Virus genome (UHGV): UHGV-0125336
Source: a virus
Strand: one strand, 5' to 3'
DNA: 37,419 nucleotides
Shown: positions 1-37,378 of the stretch, piece after piece
Position numbering within the stretch: position 1 is the stretch's first letter
Layout of the letters: every line of letters starts with the position of its first letter
Program-made: the position numbers and the translations under genes
Notes under the pieces: model-generated
Databases searched by the model: none
Told to the model about the DNA's origin: nothing
The model's input: only the letters and a program-made list of their open reading frames with translations

Positions 1-239
1 AAATCCTTTTATATCAAAAGATTAAACCACTATTATTTTCCTCAACAAGGATTTTTAACCCTTTTTCAGTCTCTGACAATCTAAGGCTCCTTTATCAACA
101 AACGCCCATTTGCAAACTGCTGTTTAATCTGAAAAAAAACATTAATAATCATACAGATAACAACATAACCATTTAGACGGGCAATACTGAAAAATTGTTA
201 TTCAGTATCGCCCTTTAAGCCGTTTCAGGCTATATAAAA

Positions 240-8254: not shown

Positions 8255-9214
8255 ATGAAAATTTGTATCGATGACGGCTCCACCAACATCAAGCTGGCAT
8301 GGACTGAGAACGGCGAACGCCGCAACGCCATCAGCCCGAACAGCTTCAAGTCGGAATGGTCTGCGCCGTTCGGTGGCACGCAGCCCGCGAACTACATGCT
8401 TGATGGCGTGCGCTATGGTTTTGATCCGGTCAGCGATCGCTTTGTCCAGACGACTGACACGCAATACCAGTACAGCGATGTGAATGTCATTGCCATTCAT
8501 CACGCGCTGGTCAAATCAGGCATCACGCCACAGGAGGTGGATGTGGTTGTCACCCTGCCACTGAGCGAGTATTTCGACACAAACGCACAGCCGGACATAG
8601 CCAACATCAACCGCAAAAAAGCGAACGTTATGCGCCCGGTGGAGTACCAGAACGGCGAAGCATTCACTATCCGTAACGTACGGGTTATGCCTGAATCCAT
8701 TCCGGCTGGCTTTAAGGCACTGGCTGACATGAGTCCGTTTGAATCCCTGCTGATTGTGGATTTAGGCGGAACCACGCTGGATGTGGCAAAGGTTCAGGGA
8801 CAACTGGCAGGTATCAGCCAGGTGTTTTGCGATCCACACGTAGGCGTTTCCCTGATGGCCGATGCCGTACTGTCGGTGATGGCCACTAACGGTATGCGTA
8901 CCAGTCACCACATCGCCAATACCATTATCGAACATCGCCATGATGAAGCCTGGCTGCGCCAGCACATCCACAATGACGCGCATTACGCCAGCCTGATGGC
9001 GGTTATTCGTGAAAAGGAAGAAACACTGAAACAACGCGTGATCCGCGCGCTGGCGGGTTTTTCGGGTTACGGGCGGGTGATGGTTGTCGGTGGCGGGGCA
9101 GAGATTGTGGCACCCGCTATCCGCGAAGCCTGCGGAGTTAATGCGACTTTCATCGCGGACGGGGTGCCACAGTTTGCTCTGGTTAATGGGCTGTACGCAA
9201 TGGGCAAGGAGTAA
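8255..9214 (+). CDS. parM: ParM/StbA-like actin-type segregation ATPase
   Basis: Collinear similarity to plasmid R1 ParM as recalled: N-terminal IDDGSTNIKL, YSDVNV..HHAL, KKAN, VMPESIPAG, DLGGTTLD, GVSL, VGGGAE, LVNG. Confidence 0.8.
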   Translation: MKICIDDGSTNIKLAWTENGERRNAISPNSFKSEWSAPFGGTQPANYMLDGVRYGFDPVSDRFVQTTDTQYQYSDVNVIAIHHALVKSGITPQEVDVVVTLPLSEYFDTNAQPDIANINRKKANVMRPVEYQNGEAFTIRNVRVMPESIPAGFKALADMSPFESLLIVDLGGTTLDVAKVQGQLAGISQVFCDPHVGVSLMADAVLSVMATNGMRTSHHIANTIIEHRHDEAWLRQHIHNDAHYASLMAVIREKEETLKQRVIRALAGFSGYGRVMVVGGGAEIVAPAIREACGVNATFIADGVPQFALVNGLYAMGKE

Positions 9215-9218
9215 ACCA

Positions 9219-9530
9219 ATGACGACACCAACCAGACGGATAAGTTTCTATCTGAAGCCCGCCGCCGTCAAGAACGAAGGCGAAGCATGCGCCTGGCTGG
9301 ACAGCCTTACACCAGAAGCCCGCAAAAGTGGTCAACGCGTGGCTTTTCTGGCCGGGCTGGCACTACTGAAAATGAATCCGGCAGAGGCTTACCGACTGGC
9401 TGCATGGGCTGATGATGAGGCGTTATCAATGACACAAACCAGGACAGAACGCCCCGCGTCACAGCCAGTATCAGCCGCACAGATAACCAGTCAGATGGCC
9501 GGAAATATCCGGGCGTTATTTCCCGAATAA
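9219..9530 (+). CDS. parR: ParR-like centromere-binding adaptor
   Basis: ISFYLKPAAV...LDSLTPEARKSGQRVAFLAGLALL...IRALFPE parallels recalled R1 ParR (IAFKLNPDV...LDSIPQGERSRLNRAALTAGLALY...LRSLFPK). AAGGAG RBS, 5 bp after parM. Confidence 0.6.
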   Translation: MTTPTRRISFYLKPAAVKNEGEACAWLDSLTPEARKSGQRVAFLAGLALLKMNPAEAYRLAAWADDEALSMTQTRTERPASQPVSAAQITSQMAGNIRALFPE

Positions 9531-9535
9531 CACAA

Positions 9536-9559
9536 CATCAGGGCGCATCCGCCCTGATG
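9536..9559. promoter_or_regulatory. Perfect 10-bp stem-loop between parR-like and the next gene
   Basis: CATCAGGGCG-CATC-CGCCCTGATG, 6 nt after the parR stop. No T-run follows, so it is a candidate operator or RNA structure, not a clean terminator. Confidence 0.35.
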
Positions 9560-9593
9560 ACTTTAACCCGGGAGCATAAACAAGGGGGACACA

Positions 9594-9926
9594 ATGCAAC
9601 ACATTGACAGAGAAAAAGCGCAGCGACTGATTGAGCGGATGGAAGCGCTGGCGAAAGAAGAAAATGTCAACATCCAAAAAATAGCTGAATGTGGCCAGAT
9701 AGTTCTTCGTCGTGAAAAAGACCTCAAACAACTGATGTCTGGCGAAACCAGCAAAACATGGACTTCAGGCGAGAAGACGGTTTATTGCAGCTTCTGCAAT
9801 AAATCCCAGTACGAAGTCACAAAGGTGATTGCCGGACCGTCTGTTTACATCTGCAATGAGTGCGTGGATTTGTGCAATGAAATTATCAGGAAAGAAGTGA
9901 CAGACAAAAAGGAAAAAAACGCATGA
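9594..9926 (+). CDS. Small protein with a C-terminal ClpX N-terminal zinc-binding-domain (C4) homolog
   Basis: The C-terminal 40 aa ([40 protein letters not shown]) is near-identical in pattern to the E. coli ClpX ZBD as recalled ([40 protein letters not shown]). No AAA+ domain follows. N-terminal 60 aa are helical and unrelated. Confidence 0.7.
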
Positions 9927-10237
9927 ACAGAAAACAGAAACAAGAGTTGAAATACTTCTTACGTAAAGAAATTGCCAGGCTTGAAGATGCAGAGTCACAA
10001 TCATCAGAAATTCCGTTCGGAATGGATATCAACGACGCCCGTATGCTCCAGGCATACCGCATAGCTCAGGCTGCACTACAGGCAAAACCGTCAGATGGAC
10101 TGGTTAGAGCAGTACATTTCTATGAACAGGTAAAGCGTGAGAATCCGCCAGTCGAAACCGGAGCATGGAAAGACGCTGTTGACTGGGTGCTCAAAGAGGC
10201 TTGCCAGTCTGTAAACATTGGCATCAAAGGAGAGTGA
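9923..10237 (+). CDS. Hypothetical protein
   Basis: 104-aa ORF. Start overlaps the upstream stop. Ends ...IGIKGE. Confidence 0.5.
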
Positions 10238-10239
10238 GA

Positions 10240-10731
10240 ATGCAAATTTCACCGGTTACTCTTCGTGTTGCGAAGGCGTTTATATCCAGACATCACCGAC
10301 ACAATAAACCCCCGGTGGGGCATAAATTCAGCATTGGTCTGAGAAATGATGCCGGAGAATTGATAGGTGTGGCGACAGCCGGTAGACCTGTTGCACGACA
10401 TTTGGACGATGGATTAACGCTTGAAGTAAATCGCACATGTACCACAGGAGAACGCAACGCTAACAGCGCGCTTTATGGTGCTGTCTGGCGGGCAGCAAAG
10501 GCTATGGGTTATCAACGTTGTATTACGTACACCCAGGCAGATGAATCAGGAGCATCTCTCCGCGCAGCTGGTTTTGTTCGTGTGAAAGAGCTTCCTCCAA
10601 GAAAAAGCTGGGCGGAATCAAGCGTCGCCCTGCGGAGTAAACGCGATCCGGTCGGAAACGGTGGTGTTCCTCGTGTGCTCTGGGAAATCAGGAGAATGAG
10701 TACCACTGGCATTCGCATCAAAGGAGAGTGA
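10240..10731 (+). CDS. Hypothetical protein
   Basis: 163 aa from ATG 10240, with AAGGAG RBS. Ends ...GIRIKGE. No motif identified with confidence. Confidence 0.5.
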   Translation: MQISPVTLRVAKAFISRHHRHNKPPVGHKFSIGLRNDAGELIGVATAGRPVARHLDDGLTLEVNRTCTTGERNANSALYGAVWRAAKAMGYQRCITYTQADESGASLRAAGFVRVKELPPRKSWAESSVALRSKRDPVGNGGVPRVLWEIRRMSTTGIRIKGE

Positions 10732-26068: not shown

Positions 26069-26080
26069 CGTAGCAGGAAA

Positions 26081-26105
26081 CAGGGGGATTTGCCCCTGTT
26101 TTTTT
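26081..26105 (+). terminator. Intrinsic terminator of the H operon
   Basis: CAGGGG-GATTTG-CCCCTG hairpin followed by a T7 run. Confidence 0.55.
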
Positions 26106-26222
26106 GTTCAGAATGCAGCCTTCACCATTCGTCTCTAATCGTATTCAGTAATTCGCCCGCAGAAACAAACTAAAATTCATCCCCCACATCACGCCACTGA
26201 AAGCAGACGGTAAACTCCAGAT
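26106..26222 (-). pseudogene. Degenerate remnant of a gpU 3' end
   Basis: About 75-80% identical by eye to 26888..27010 (the intact U 3' end) in the same orientation. Reading frame preserved at the stop (RMVKAAF* versus KMATAAF*), but an in-frame TAG lies upstream. Confidence 0.6.
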
Positions 26223-26525
26223 TTTCAAACCAGCGTCAGAAGTATTTAAATGGCACCAGATGTAATATGCAGGCGATTAATATGGTGTGCTTAAAGATCA
26301 TAAAAGCGGGCAACATTAAAACTCCGGGCTGTGTAAATTACCGCCACTCATAATCAGAGATGAAAACAGAATTAAACTGGCGGCGTGGATTGTATACATA
26401 AAATAAGTTCAGTTGTTGACTTTCACTTCCGTGAGTTGATGAAGGTTATTACAATACACCGGTATGATCTCTCCTCCTTAAAAGGGAGGACTTTTCAGAA
26501 CGCAGAAATTATTTATAATCCCGTA

Positions 26526-26576
26526 GTGTTCTACACATGCCAACATTCTTTGCCCGCCCCGTGCGGGCTTTTTTTT
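26526..26576 (+). ncRNA. Candidate small RNA 1 (about 50 nt)
   Basis: Weak promoter (TTTTCA-N16-TATAAT, -10 at 26514-26519) upstream of a strong terminator (GCCCGC-CCCGT-GCGGGC plus T8, 26552-26576). No convincing ORF. Confidence 0.25.
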
Positions 26577-26666
26577 GCCATAAAGACACAGTAACAAACA
26601 GAATTGTAATCAGAGCAATAAAATCATGAAAAACATTTTCATTGATGACGATAACAATTAAAAATA

Positions 26667-26696
26667 TTGCATTAAATGATTCCCGTTCAATATAAT
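26667..26696 (+). promoter_or_regulatory. Sigma70-like promoter (TTGCAT-N18-TATAAT)
   Basis: -35 TTGCAT at 26667-26672 and -10 TATAAT at 26691-26696. Drives the short transcript ending at the 26740-26763 terminator. Confidence 0.45.
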
Positions 26697-26703
26697 CCCC
26701 CTG

Positions 26704-26763
26704 CAACCAGAAAAATTAAATCTTCACACAATGCATGTTGCCCTCTTTATGAGGGCTTTTTTA
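26704..26763 (+). ncRNA. Candidate small RNA 2 (about 60 nt)
   Basis: Between the TTGCAT/TATAAT promoter and the terminator GCCCTC-TTTAT-GAGGGC plus T6. No ORF. Shares a CACA-ATGC-TTGCCC motif with candidate 1. Confidence 0.35.
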
Positions 26764-26854
26764 TTTCCCGAATATCACCATTGCCATCATCGGGCGATTT
26801 ATATATAGTCAGAATGTATTGACAACATTTTGCTTCTTTTCCATGAAGGCCATA

Positions 26855-26886
26855 AGGGAGTGCTTTTTACACTCCCTCTTTTTTTA
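26855..26886 (+). terminator. Intrinsic terminator abutting the U stop codon
   Basis: AGGGAGTG-CTTTTTA-CACTCCCT followed by a T8 run. Plus-strand oriented. Confidence 0.6.
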
Positions 26887-26887
26887 T

Positions 26888-33739: not shown

Positions 33740-34000
33740 ATGTTCCGTTGTCCGCTTTGTGGCGCATCTGCCCGTATCCGCACCAGTCGTTCGGAAAATG
33801 ATTCAAACACCGTACGGAAAAAATATTACCAGTGTAACAACCTGGAATGCGGCATAAGTTTCTCAACACTGGAAGCTTTCCATAAATTCACATCGAAACA
33901 CGCCCCCGGCGTTCACTCTTCAGAAGGTATCCCGTGGCATGAGTTGCCAGCTTCACACAGGGGAAACAATCAGATGAGTTTGCCTTTACCTCAGAATTAA
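33740..34000 (+). CDS. ogr: Ogr/Delta-family zinc-finger late-gene activator
   Basis: MFRCPLCG...YYQCNNLEC: a CxxC...CxxxxC zinc finger at the N-terminus as in P2 Ogr (MFHCPLC...YHQCQNVNC as recalled). Longer C-terminal tail than P2 Ogr. Confidence 0.75.
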   Translation: MFRCPLCGASARIRTSRSENDSNTVRKKYYQCNNLECGISFSTLEAFHKFTSKHAPGVHSSEGIPWHELPASHRGNNQMSLPLPQN

Positions 34001-34190
34001 CAGGCAGAATTGCCGGAGTAACAAAAAAGCGATAGATTACGCGCGGGTGCCTTTCGGCTGATGGTCGGAGGGAATACCCGAAGGCCAGATGTGGAAAGGC
34101 CCCGGAAAACATTTCTGTTTAACCGAGGCCCTAACCGTCTAACCTTAGCAAGTGATAGGTTAGCGCCTCCCTGAAAAAGGAGCAAGCGCT

Positions 34191-34331
34191 ATGTCGCAAA
34201 AATCGCTTACGGCCATCACGTTCTGCGTGACGGCAATCCTCATCATCTGGATGCTGCACGGTTCGCTGTGCGAAATACGGATGAGCTTCTGGGGAGCGGA
34301 GTTTGCGGCGTTCTTACAGTGTAAGCAGTAA
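34191..34331 (+). CDS. hok: Hok/Gef-family type I toxin (46 aa)
   Basis: MSQKSLTAITFCVTAILIIWMLHGSLCEIRMSFWGAEFAAFLQCKQ: one TM helix, then the SLCEI motif and an AAFL.CK C-terminus, closest to HokA as recalled. SD AAGGAG (34177-34182) sits in a hairpin. A GNRA-loop hairpin follows the stop (34341-34362). Confidence 0.7.
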   Translation: MSQKSLTAITFCVTAILIIWMLHGSLCEIRMSFWGAEFAAFLQCKQ

Positions 34332-34740: not shown

Positions 34741-35574
34741 ATGGTCATGAATAATAAGCTAAAGGTAATTGAGTTAAATAGTCTTGATCTGTTTCGTAAA
34801 GAATTACTAACTACTATAAAGCCAGAGAAAGTAGAGAAATTACTTAGATGGTATCTTCAATCATATGGCGGTGTTAATTTCAAGTTCGGTTATGACAGAC
34901 CAATTTTTAGAGCGCGAAAGTGCCCAAATGAATGCGGATATAATAACATCAGTGAGATATATCCCCCTCCACCAGAAAAATGTAAAATAGGCCGAATGAA
35001 TGATGATGGACAAGCTATCTTCTATGGCGCTTATAGTATCGGAACAGCTTTAGCCGAAATTAATGCAAAAGAAGGGGATTATGTTCACATAGCTCACTTT
35101 AAGATGCCGGAAAATTCAGAGTCTGGAATGCGATGTTTTGCTATCGGTGAGGTCTTTAATGTGTATCACGGTGTAAATACAATTTCAATTGAAGTGTTTA
35201 ATGAAATTCGCGACATCATTAGCAGAATTGGTAAGGACGACATCCGAGCTTTGCTATCATATTTGTATATGGATGCCCTTTCTGCTGAGTTGCTTAATAG
35301 TATCAATGCCCATGAGGTAAATTATATTTACTCAAGAATTTTTTGCCGTCTTCTTCTTGATAAATACCCTGATGTTGATGGTCTTATTTATCCTAGCGCT
35401 AAAATAAAAGGGGCCTCAAATATCGCTTTGCGCACAGAAACAGTTAAATCGAGAATGCATTTAGTTGCTAATCTTGTGTTTAAAGTAAATAAAATTTATC
35501 CATATGGAATAGTAGATTTCAGTATAGTAAAACAAGCCAAAGGACATACATCAGATGGGCGCATCGTTTGGTGA
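34741..35574 (+). CDS. RES-domain-like protein (putative NAD+-targeting toxin fold) with an N-terminal extension
   Basis: KIGRMNDDGQAIFYGAYSIGTALAEI fits the RES pattern (G-R-W/M-N..G...Y.A.S...A..E), and DGLIYPSAKIKGASNIAL fits the second conserved block. No adjacent Xre/antitoxin-like ORF. AT-rich. Confidence 0.5.
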   Translation: MVMNNKLKVIELNSLDLFRKELLTTIKPEKVEKLLRWYLQSYGGVNFKFGYDRPIFRARKCPNECGYNNISEIYPPPPEKCKIGRMNDDGQAIFYGAYSIGTALAEINAKEGDYVHIAHFKMPENSESGMRCFAIGEVFNVYHGVNTISIEVFNEIRDIISRIGKDDIRALLSYLYMDALSAELLNSINAHEVNYIYSRIFCRLLLDKYPDVDGLIYPSAKIKGASNIALRTETVKSRMHLVANLVFKVNKIYPYGIVDFSIVKQAKGHTSDGRIVW

Positions 35575-35900: not shown

Positions 35901-36087
35901 AGCTCTAAATGCAAAAATCCCATGAAACTGTGGGTATTTCATTACACACTGACACTGCTCTACCTTTCTATATGTATCACTCTAAACCAGTTAATCAATT
36001 GGCACTTATCAACAACAAAAAATCTGATAAAATCAAAATGTTTTGTAACAAATTTCAGCTTGTAGTGTTCCAAAGGAGACGGATTAC

Positions 36088-36420
36088 ATGGCATTAATCA
36101 AATGTCCTGAATGCCAGAAAGAGGTCAGCGATTCAGCATTATGTTGCCCTGCTTGTGGTAAACAACTGAAAAAACTTAAGCGTTCATTTTTTGGAAAACT
36201 CATTAAATGGGCTTTTATATTTTTTAATATTTTTATGATCTATACACTTTTAGTTGGACTAGGAGGCGCTGATGAAATAATAAACAATACCACATCCGAT
36301 GCCGAAAAAGCTGGGGCAGTTATTGGTACGGGCTTAGGTTTAATTGCCATTGGAGGCTTATGGGTTATTGGCGATATAATTATCGGAATTTTAGTGTTTC
36401 TTACTAAACCAAAGGGATAA
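36088..36420 (+). CDS. Zinc-ribbon membrane protein, unknown function
   Basis: N-terminal CPEC...CPAC zinc ribbon followed by two hydrophobic helices. AAGGAG RBS. AT-rich. Confidence 0.6.
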   Translation: MALIKCPECQKEVSDSALCCPACGKQLKKLKRSFFGKLIKWAFIFFNIFMIYTLLVGLGGADEIINNTTSDAEKAGAVIGTGLGLIAIGGLWVIGDIIIGILVFLTKPKG

Positions 36421-36424
36421 TAAA

Positions 36425-37318
36425 ATGAAAAATATGATTTTTTCTATAGGTGCATTATTTATATCAATTAGTGTACTGCCTGTTCACGCAGCAACTGAAC
36501 ATAAGAATTTCAATGCAGTGCTCCAGTGCCGAGCGATAGAAAACAATAAAGACAGACTTTCTTGTTACGATAAGTCAATACAACCGACTCGAACGAAAGT
36601 TGCTGAAAAATTTGAAAGCAGGGATCAATGCCCTGATGAGAAAGATGATGACAAACGTTTATCTTGTTATGATCGTTTTTTTTCTCCAACATTTACTCCA
36701 TCTGTAAACTCAAAATCTAAAACGGAAAAGCTAGTAACAACAGAGGCTCAGCAACCAAATCTTTCTGAAATATCTAAATGCCGAGCAGAAAATGATAAAG
36801 AAGCCAGACTAAACTGCTACGATAAACTATTCCCACAGAATGAAGCTGTTCAATCTGAATCACAATTAGAGAAAGCCACAGATGCAGGAAAATGGCACAC
36901 GTCCATTACTACATCGCCAATTGATGATTCGAAAAATGTAATTTTATCGTTAGAAAGTGATGATTATATCAGAACTCCATTTGGAGAAGCTGTTACTCCC
37001 ACTCTGTTTATAGCTTGCCGAGAAAAGAAAACCGAAGTATTTCTTAGTTGGGATGTATATTTAGGCCTTGAACAAACCAGCATGCTGTATCGTCTTGATA
37101 AACAGAAAGCAGTTGAAAGAAACTGGCTAATATCTACAGATACAAAGGCTGTTTTTTATAAAGGTAATGATATTGATTTCATAAGAAAACTTGCCAACTC
37201 ACATAAAATGTACACAAAAATAACCCCCTATAATGAAAGCCCTGTAAGTGCAACTTTCAATTTAAGCGGCCTGTCAAATGCACTAAAACCGCTTCAAGAT
37301 GCTTGTAACTGGAAATAG
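36425..37318 (+). CDS. Secreted protein with three 20-aa Cys-pair repeats, unknown function
   Basis: Signal-peptide-like N-terminus (MKNMIFSIGALFISISVLPVHAA). Repeats LQCRAIENNKDRLSCYDK, DQCPDEKDDDKRLSCYDR, SKCRAENDKEARLNCYDK. Starts 4 nt after the upstream gene. Confidence 0.6.
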   Translation: MKNMIFSIGALFISISVLPVHAATEHKNFNAVLQCRAIENNKDRLSCYDKSIQPTRTKVAEKFESRDQCPDEKDDDKRLSCYDRFFSPTFTPSVNSKSKTEKLVTTEAQQPNLSEISKCRAENDKEARLNCYDKLFPQNEAVQSESQLEKATDAGKWHTSITTSPIDDSKNVILSLESDDYIRTPFGEAVTPTLFIACREKKTEVFLSWDVYLGLEQTSMLYRLDKQKAVERNWLISTDTKAVFYKGNDIDFIRKLANSHKMYTKITPYNESPVSATFNLSGLSNALKPLQDACNWK

Positions 37319-37336
37319 TATATACCTCCCCAATAT

Positions 37337-37378
37337 CAGATGACAAAACGCCCGTGAAAACGGGCGTTTTGTCATCTG
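37337..37378. terminator. Perfect 18-bp-stem palindrome, candidate bidirectional terminator
   Basis: CAGATGACAAAACGCCCG-TGAAAA-CGGGCGTTTTGTCATCTG, with A/T runs inside both arms. Lies between the converging plus-strand operon and the minus-strand partial ORF. Confidence 0.55.

Follow-up and report, generated by a model that had tools for sequence, protein, structure and literature searches.

The right end of UHGV virus genome UHGV-0125336, a stretch of 37,419 nucleotides analyzed here at its full length (the window), carries two co-oriented genes that are referred to as open reading frame 1 (ORF1; 36088-36420, plus strand, 110 aa) and ORF2 (36425-37318, plus strand, 297 aa, as given by the ORF listing). 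Only 4 nt lie between the stop codon of ORF1 and the ATG of ORF2, and each gene is preceded by a Shine-Dalgarno-like purine run. The window as a whole is a complete P2-like (Xuanwuvirus/P88-like) prophage that extends from attL to just before attR, where the pair forms the last cargo and ends 100 bp from attR. The G+C content of this cassette is 36%, versus 52% for the prophage. An original prediction had described the locus as an AT-rich pair of co-oriented, translationally close genes in horizontally acquired DNA beside toxin genes, encoding a partner with a zinc ribbon and two transmembrane (TM) helices and a secreted protein with three cysteine-pair repeats, and had proposed an association with the envelope. 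This description is accurate throughout, including the gene coordinates and the toxin-gene neighbors (hok/sok and a RES-domain gene), while the interpretation attached to it is supported in part. The most plausible reading of the pair is an exclusion-type role, in which a phage-borne member of the VasI family would act in the periplasm of the lysogen alongside a small membrane protein.

The ORF2 product is predicted to be a soluble periplasmic protein, with a beta-sandwich set on three helical hairpins that are joined by disordered linkers. Its N-terminus, read directly from the sequence, is a predicted Sec-type signal peptide (MKNMIFSIGALFISISVLPVHA; residues 1-22, 36425-36490, plus strand) with cleavage after VHA and before AT, and no lipobox is present in this region. 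Three copies, and exactly three, of the motif C-x9-L-(S/N)-C-Y-D-(K/R) follow, at C35, C69 and C119. The first hairpin (residues 27-56, C35/C47; 36503-36592, plus strand) is modeled by AlphaFold2 as a helix-turn-helix spanning residues 29-51, with a predicted local distance difference test score (pLDDT) of about 80, and the second (residues 61-90, C69/C81; 36605-36694, plus strand) is likewise seen in the motif and the model. The third (residues 111-140, C119/C131; 36755-36844, plus strand) is the copy common to all one-repeat relatives and to the VasI protein of the T6SS (type VI secretion system). Because the C, R, L, C, Y and D residues are invariant in the three copies, and all three copies are kept in every full-length three-repeat homologue, the motif is not a product of chance. 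The hairpins are probably stapled by disulfides. The remainder of the protein (residues 155-297, 143 residues followed directly by the stop codon; 36887-37318, plus strand) could not be placed in the original prediction, but profile and structure searches place it as a VasI (PF11319)/IalB-like beta-sandwich, and the family alignment reveals a second conserved cysteine pair, C198/C294, inside this domain. The match of ORF2 to PF11319 reaches 91.4 bits (E = 7e-26) against a gathering threshold of 26.5, making it a member of the family, and in the best stretch residues 118-296 span the full model (positions 1-184 of 184). Each of the two extra hairpins aligns once more with the first model positions, for three stretches in total, and the cysteine repeats are thus the N-terminal module of VasI, here triplicated. 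The IalB model PF06776 gave 19.4 bits (E = 0.0012) over residues 223-289 only, below its gathering threshold of 22.1, while the predicted structure has the IalB-type beta-sandwich fold, with IalB and a flagellar ring component as the fold-search matches. A sequence search of PDB chains returned nothing meaningful, the best matches being a tubby-related protein for ORF2 (E = 0.047) and only matches with E > 1 for ORF1.

Membership of the VasI family raises the question of whether ORF2 belongs to a T6SS, as its RefSeq name implies. The curated equivalog TIGR03360 has a cut-off of 124.2 bits, which the T6SS VasI of E. coli EDL933 (WP_000088854.1), a genuine VasI encoded between tssH and tssA, passes with 257.4 bits; ORF2 scores 79.9 bits and its phage-type relatives 35-57 bits. 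The identity between ORF2 and the EDL933 protein is 26% over 195 aa (E = 4e-11). We searched approximately 208 loci with 14 EDL933 T6SS core proteins (tblastn), and the 4-10 kb around the ORF1 and ORF2 relatives contained no T6SS core gene, the only exception being one ClpB-like AAA+ match, and the non-enterobacterial relatives that were scanned for neighbors do not lie in T6SS clusters. On the basis of the sub-cut-off score, the low identity and the lack of neighboring T6SS core genes, ORF2 is best assigned to a clade of VasI-family paralogues carried by phages, and its naming as "T6SS-associated" looks like an over-transfer below the curated threshold. Correcting this label would avoid false T6SS calls in genome surveys. 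Canonical TagO/VasI is itself listed as being of unknown function (PMC13584744, Box 1; PMC6653060), and in keeping with the original prediction ORF2 is thus not assigned to a characterized housekeeping family. Genes of the DUF1311/LprI family were observed near the EDL933 T6SS vasI cluster (L049 17166-17615) and near an orphan Photobacterium VasI-like gene (L013 9097-9513), a proximity that may be coincidental.

The cysteine hairpin of ORF2 is also found outside of the VasI family. A profile built from the three ORF2 hairpins alone and run against 1.84 billion representative proteins recovered the motif in three settings: on its own, as tandem arrays of 4-6 copies joined by Pro-rich linkers; following Sel1 or pentapeptide repeats, where it ends the protein; and N-terminal to a phospholipase A1 (PF02253, 277 bits). 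In the hairpin-bearing set (P0152, P0155, P0158, P0161, P0166 and P0171), the sole match to the hairpins in the copy of Pfam that was searched is to the initial ~30 positions of the VasI model, and the motif seems to have no Pfam model of its own. From its sequence contexts, the hairpin can be described as a separable, tandemly expandable and mobile periplasmic module. A separate domain definition for the C-x9-RLxCYD hairpin could be justified, and recognition of the hairpin might help to explain canonical VasI/TagO.

ORF1 is predicted to combine a cytoplasmic zinc ribbon with a two-helix membrane hairpin. The zinc ribbon (residues 1-31) is formed by CPEC-x10-CPAC at residues 6-23, which several zinc-ribbon Pfam models matched just under their thresholds (E = 3e-5). 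Two hydrophobic stretches follow, TM1 at residues ~38-60 and TM2 at residues ~77-105, separated by a periplasmic loop at residues ~61-76, and the protein ends in a TKPKG tail; AlphaFold2 models the membrane part as two long helices, residues 34-66 and 71-105 (mean pLDDT 77). Lys/Arg-rich segments before TM1 and after TM2 indicate that both termini, and with them the zinc ribbon, are cytoplasmic, leaving a periplasmic loop of ~15 residues. Both products of the cassette are thereby predicted to be in the envelope, given the signal peptide, the TM predictions and the conserved cysteine pairs. The ORF1 family is narrow, comprising Enterobacterales and one Haemophilus.

The membrane part of ORF1 is, as far as profile and pairwise comparisons can tell, a remote homologue of DrpB (YedR), a small divisome protein of E. 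coli. This link was drawn from NCBIfam NF038392, BLASTP and the precomputed "weak" flags of PF28000. Residues 28-109 of ORF1 align to positions 2-84 of 86 in the DrpB model NF038392, which is matched at E <= 0.01 by 30 of 37 ORF1-family members (best 7e-7), all of them below the 50-bit cut-off. BLASTP aligns ORF1 to K-12 DrpB with 27% identity over 90 residues (E = 7e-5), and the hhalign comparison of the ORF1 family with the single DrpB sequence is weak (probability 16%). DrpB has been described as having two TM helices, cytoplasmic termini, a short loop and its strongest conservation at the end of TM2, and it localizes to the septal ring (PMC7648144). The same topology is predicted for ORF1, including the short periplasmic loop and the conservation at the end of TM2. 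In multicopy, DrpB activates Rcs via the periplasmic domain of RcsC and induces Psp, and T89, within the C-terminal YTRPR, is the sole tested residue whose mutation abolished Rcs induction (PMC11709261). Thr106 of ORF1 aligns with this T89, and T106, P108 and K109 are each conserved at 90% or more in the ORF1 family.

The two genes are organized as an autonomous unit. A sigma-70-like promoter, TTATCA-16-TAAAAT with an upstream TG, was identified at 36006-36033 (plus strand) from a promoter scan and from its conservation: TTGTCA-16-TAAAAT is kept upstream of the zinc-ribbon gene (ZnR) in Klebsiella, Enterobacter and plasmid copies, where the element lies downstream of a hairpin resembling the ogr terminator. 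Beginning 19 nt past the ORF2 stop codon, a perfect 19-bp inverted repeat with a 4-nt loop (37337-37378; inverted repeat I3) forms a terminator-like hairpin with a GC-rich core followed by TTTTG, which was found in the inverted-repeat search and the sequence and was not listed by a simple terminator scan. With its own putative promoter and terminator, atypical base composition and variable presence, the pair has all the marks of a phage moron, and the cassette would be expressed in the lysogen from its own sigma-70-type promoter.

Relatives of the pair occur in enterobacterial prophages. The closest, at 99.5% identity, are the hypothetical genes gp36/gp37 of Xuanwuvirus P884B11 (Peduoviridae), and copies that are ~92% identical occur in phage 500465-2, Citrobacter phage Shae_phiSM and PhiR44_2. 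The pair was found in 237 of 5426 complete E. coli genomes; the cassette or a close variant is thus carried by ~4% of these and by many Klebsiella, Enterobacter, Salmonella and Citrobacter prophages. Homologues of ORF2 form three length classes set apart solely by hairpin number, with three hairpins in proteins of ~297 aa, two in those of ~250 aa and one in those of ~205-220 aa. We examined the neighborhoods of six representative relatives. The Klebsiella three-repeat and one-repeat forms and the Enterobacter one-repeat form follow ogr and a 110-aa zinc-ribbon gene at the end of a P2-like prophage, while the E. coli and Salmonella two-repeat forms, likewise located at the prophage end, are oriented convergently with ogr-hok, the former adjoining a different protein with a zinc ribbon and a TM2 domain and the latter standing alone. 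The Photobacterium homologue lies outside of phage and T6SS loci alike. In all but two of the enterobacterial contexts examined, the cassette adjoins ogr at the prophage end, and almost every related locus has ogr upstream of it.

The association of the two genes is close, and the cassette itself is readily exchanged. On viral contigs, a ZnR gene is directly upstream and on the same strand for 66 of 79 VasI-like genes, most of them at the contig end, and the identities of ZnR and VasI co-vary across 108 loci (r = 0.95). Among phages whose gpD proteins are at least 97% identical, ZnR identity ranges over 82-100% and VasI identity over 88-100%, and some phages with near-identical gpD (98%) have the cassette swapped for a 42%-identical two-repeat VasI and the different zinc-ribbon/TM2 partner. 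Comparison of the ORF1 family with this TM2-domain partner by hhalign aligned the zinc ribbon only, which indicates that the membrane parts of the two partners are analogous and not homologous. By these comparisons, the cassette is accessory and fast-evolving. In more distant phages (L077 4001-5017, L081 2864-3625 and L086 4001-4680), the place of VasI after the ZnR/DrpB-like gene is taken by other small proteins with signal peptides, some of them Cys-rich, which points to a conserved membrane partner whose periplasmic partners can be exchanged. Decayed copies were also observed. A decayed remnant of a P2-like phage end, with the order ogr - hok - ZnR - TagO, is found on IncF virulence plasmids (11 plasmids, 89% identity), among them pCss165 of enterotoxigenic E. 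coli (ETEC) (L048, NC_022333.1, 6344-8360), and its TagO is split into two ORFs. In the IMG/VR contigs L149 and L155-L159, ORF2 copies of 87-95% identity are apparently frameshifted in the hairpin region, the intact frame beginning only ~250 nt after the ZnR gene, and this indicates occasional decay of the cassette. In Shewanella pneumatophori (L028 3490-17140), a one-repeat VasI-like gene is located among a RecD-like helicase, a TerB-N/TerB-C protein and a BrxC/D-type ATPase, in what looks like a defense island.

The best explanation for these features, held with confidence that is evenly balanced, is that the cassette provides envelope-level protection or lysogenic conversion. We infer the protective function from the kind of locus, from the diversification and swapping of the cassette, and from the precedent of SDIC4B, a secreted Serratia protein described as having the VasI fold, which was the central component of its defense system and gave 10-200-fold phage protection even when expressed without its partner, while the partner alone gave none (10.1101/2024.01.28.577318). 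The site corresponds to a third P2 hotspot, between a tail protein and CI, that was reported by iLund4u (10.1101/2024.10.15.618418), a less studied stretch reaching from the tail and ogr to CI. A location in the classical P2 defense hotspot was considered and dropped, as the old/tin "TO region" is between gpA and gpQ (PMC9122126). Under this explanation, the cassette would be expressed in the lysogen and would deliver two proteins to the host envelope: ORF1, in the inner membrane, whose zinc ribbon would face the cytoplasm and whose two-helix hairpin is DrpB-like, and ORF2, a Sec-exported periplasmic effector or binding module. The lysogen would then be shielded from incoming phages, and perhaps from other contractile injectors, with ORF1 serving as an accessory membrane partner that possibly connects, as DrpB does, with the divisome or with the envelope-stress circuits Rcs and Psp. 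ORF1 and ORF2 may be in contact with one another. The original prediction had named a lysozyme-inhibitor type of protein as one form that an envelope factor might take, and this was rejected: no Pfam match to the Ivy, MliC/PliC, PliG or LprI families was obtained even at E <= 1, and the structural neighbors of ORF2 are IalB and the flagellar ring component, with no inhibitor among them. A more ambitious proposal, in which we place little credence, is that a VasI-family protein, tethered in the periplasm by its multiplied hairpins, and a DrpB-like partner constitute a new envelope immunity that intercepts myovirus tails and T6SS spikes between the membranes, or that triggers Rcs on their arrival. 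If true, VasI/TagO would serve the T6SS by contacting the tube or spike in the periplasm, and anchoring proteins in this compartment would be the general role of the C-x9-RLxCYD hairpin.

Several observations weigh against a protective role of this kind. The stretch between ogr and att is not among the defense-rich P2 hotspots in the largest survey (PMC13586616), and PADLOC-DB v2 gave no match for ORF1 and only a chance-level Cas1e match for ORF2 (E = 0.046). In PHROGs, both proteins are found only in families of "unknown function" (6586 and 1848). Since SDIC4B and ORF2 have no detectable sequence similarity, the precedent amounts to the authors' statement of the fold, and the case for expression in the lysogen consists of the consensus promoter. 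On the side of ORF1, the score against NF038392 is 18.7 bits (E = 0.0016), short of the curated cut-off of 50 bits, and likeness between TM segments can be inflated by composition. The two genes are also not strictly bound to one another: only 24 of 38 full-length ZnR genes on viral contigs are followed by VasI, the other 14 being followed by unrelated small secreted proteins or standing alone, and two-repeat VasI genes occur alone or convergent to their neighbor, so the partner has been dispensable in evolution. Separately, a literature search found no paper on these protein accessions, and TagO/VasI is absent from the main text of both Rousset 2022 and the 2026 NAR survey of P2/P4.

The competing explanations differ in how well they fit the same data. 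The pair could modulate envelope physiology rather than defense, with ORF1 acting like multicopy DrpB, through Rcs/Psp induction or divisome binding, and ORF2 tuning it from the periplasm, so that capsule, biofilm or division would be altered to the advantage of the lysogen or of prophage maintenance; the DrpB-like membrane domain with its conserved threonine and the behavior of DrpB itself, from RcsC-dependent Rcs activation and Psp induction to its septal-ring position, fit this proposal. It is nevertheless unlikely, given that the homology is remote and below cut-off, that DrpB has no zinc ribbon, and that the ZnR gene is missing at 13 of 79 VasI loci. As Rcs activation would itself be expected to give protection from phages or the T6SS, this explanation also overlaps with that of envelope-level protection. 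More doubtful is that ORF2 is a T6SS accessory (TagO/VasI, as RefSeq names it), supplied by the phage to modulate T6SS assembly or firing in the host. Its true PF11319 membership with full model coverage and the architecture in common with EDL933 VasI (signal peptide, cysteine hairpin and beta-sandwich ending in C-x-W) speak for this role; against it are a score of 79.9 bits where the equivalog requires 124.2 and genuine VasI reaches 257, the near-complete lack of T6SS genes around its relatives in ~208 loci, the position of the scanned non-enterobacterial relatives outside of T6SS clusters, and the fact that canonical TagO has no known function of its own (PMC13584744).

A role in the lytic cycle, in tail penetration, DNA ejection or the timing of lysis, would agree with the co-orientation with ogr and the tail operon, the cassette following ogr immediately and on its strand in most loci, and the structural neighbors of ORF2 in BFVD include uncharacterized proteins of the lytic T4-like phages RB16, KP15 and Aeromonas 65.2. 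However, near-identical phages lack the cassette or have a different, convergent version, and thus it has no core function; moreover, it has its own promoter after the ogr terminator, and prophages that are otherwise intact, as well as a plasmid remnant, retain frameshifted copies. On balance, we consider a lytic role improbable. A part in host interaction or virulence, by analogy with Bartonella IalB (invasion-associated locus B), is less probable still; it is suggested by the weak PF06776 match (E = 0.0012) and by the decayed copy on pCss165. The score in question is below the family threshold (19.4 vs. 22.1), the export signal of ORF2 is Sec only, for which periplasmic retention is expected, and the listed E. 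coli carriers, from wastewater, pond water, livestock, a dog and humans, show no evident leaning toward a pathotype. Envelope-level protection remains our preferred explanation. Being compact and easy to clone, the cassette offers a candidate for a prophage function at the level of the envelope, in a P2 cargo site yet to be mined by experiment.

The surrounding prophage is organized in the manner of P2. The attL core occupies window positions 1-55, and the same 55 bp recur exactly as attR directly past the window end in E. coli AVS0969 (L001 9821-9875). An integrase gene is at the left end, followed by gpA, portal, terminase and tail genes, and the right end has the order gpD - ogr - hok/sok - RES-domain gene - ORF1 - ORF2 - attR. 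The ogr/Delta-like late activator (33740-34000, plus strand; annotated at L001 6141-6401, offset 27599) is the final conserved P2 core gene ahead of the variable cargo region. Directly after it, and outside of the pair, is a hok/sok-type toxin-antitoxin (34045-34331, plus strand), made up of an Rfam sok match at 34045-34204, whose 43.6 bits are under the gathering threshold of 59, and a Hok/Gef coding sequence annotated at L001 6592-6732 (window 34191-34331). The next cargo gene (34741-35574, plus strand) encodes a 277-aa RES-domain protein (PF08808, 46.7 bits) with the RefSeq name "RES family NAD+ phosphorylase," and no obvious Xre-type antitoxin gene adjoins it. P884B11 annotates this gene as two ORFs (gp33/gp34), which suggests a frameshift there. 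An inverted repeat of ~115 bp (34405-34519/35778-35889; inverted repeats I1, I2 and I5, 88-96% complementary) brackets the RES-domain gene, its left arm being just downstream of hok. Insertion or inversion of the RES cassette may have taken place between hok and the ZnR-VasI pair. The matches to phage 500465-2 and to the plasmid copies extend only from ~35890/~35973 of the window onward. Two further regions of the window were observed. The classical gpA-gpQ hotspot (8255-10731) encodes a ParM actin-like partition ATPase (274 + 230 bits) together with a StbB-like protein for plasmid stability, and also a protein with a ClpX-type zinc finger and one with a weak likeness to Mom; this is a plasmid-style segregation module within an integrated P2-like phage. 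At 26069-26887, between gpU and a small ORF after the tail-fiber gene, no ORF longer than 69 aa is present in ~820 bp of DNA that is rich in A+T (G+C of 41% for the 26-27 kb bin), at roughly the position of the P2 Z/fun cargo site.

In comparison with known systems, the cassette is not a new kind of element, as its genes already carry annotations and their family is a known one. Apparently undescribed until now are a prophage-borne VasI clade that is distinct from the T6SS equivalog and carries 1-3 mobile cysteine hairpins, its regular pairing with a zinc-ribbon and DrpB-like membrane protein, and the moron organization at the ogr-att end. Superinfection-exclusion envelope proteins and morons of this general kind include T4 Imm/Sp, P22 SieA and T5 Llp. 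Like the cassette, these are small membrane or periplasmic proteins of prophage cargo that brings its own promoter and terminator and has an atypical G+C content, but no sequence relationship to the cassette was detected. IalB (PF06776; PDB 3dtd) differs from ORF2 in its 14-17% identity, its sub-threshold Pfam score and its lack of cysteine hairpins. The SDIC4 system is similar in being a two-gene operon, mainly found in Enterobacteria and not linked to a T6SS, whose key component is a small Sec-exported protein with the VasI fold according to its authors. We translated SDIC4A and SDIC4B from the plasmid sequences of the preprint, and identity with this system was rejected (BLASTP E = 50; hhalign against the ORF2 family, probability 0.2%; no Pfam hit, VasI included, for either protein). 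SDIC4B has no cysteine hairpins, its partner SDIC4A is another secreted protein, and the operon resides in chromosomal LptG-YjiA islands beside BrxR, not in P2-like prophages. With DrpB, ORF1 shares the two-helix topology with both termini inside, the short periplasmic loop and a conserved T-(R/K)-P-(K/R) tail with the Rcs-relevant threonine; in contrast, ORF1 adds an N-terminal zinc ribbon, is phage-borne and linked to a periplasmic partner, and scores far below 50 bits. Finally, canonical VasI/TagO (TIGR03360; EDL933 WP_000088854.1, V. cholerae VC_A0118) has in common with ORF2 the PF11319 domain, the signal peptide, the C-x9-RL-x-CYD hairpin and the beta-sandwich with its C-terminal C-x-W, whereas ORF2 falls below the equivalog cut-off, has three hairpins instead of one, has never been found in a T6SS cluster, and is carried by P2-like prophages together with a zinc-ribbon membrane partner.

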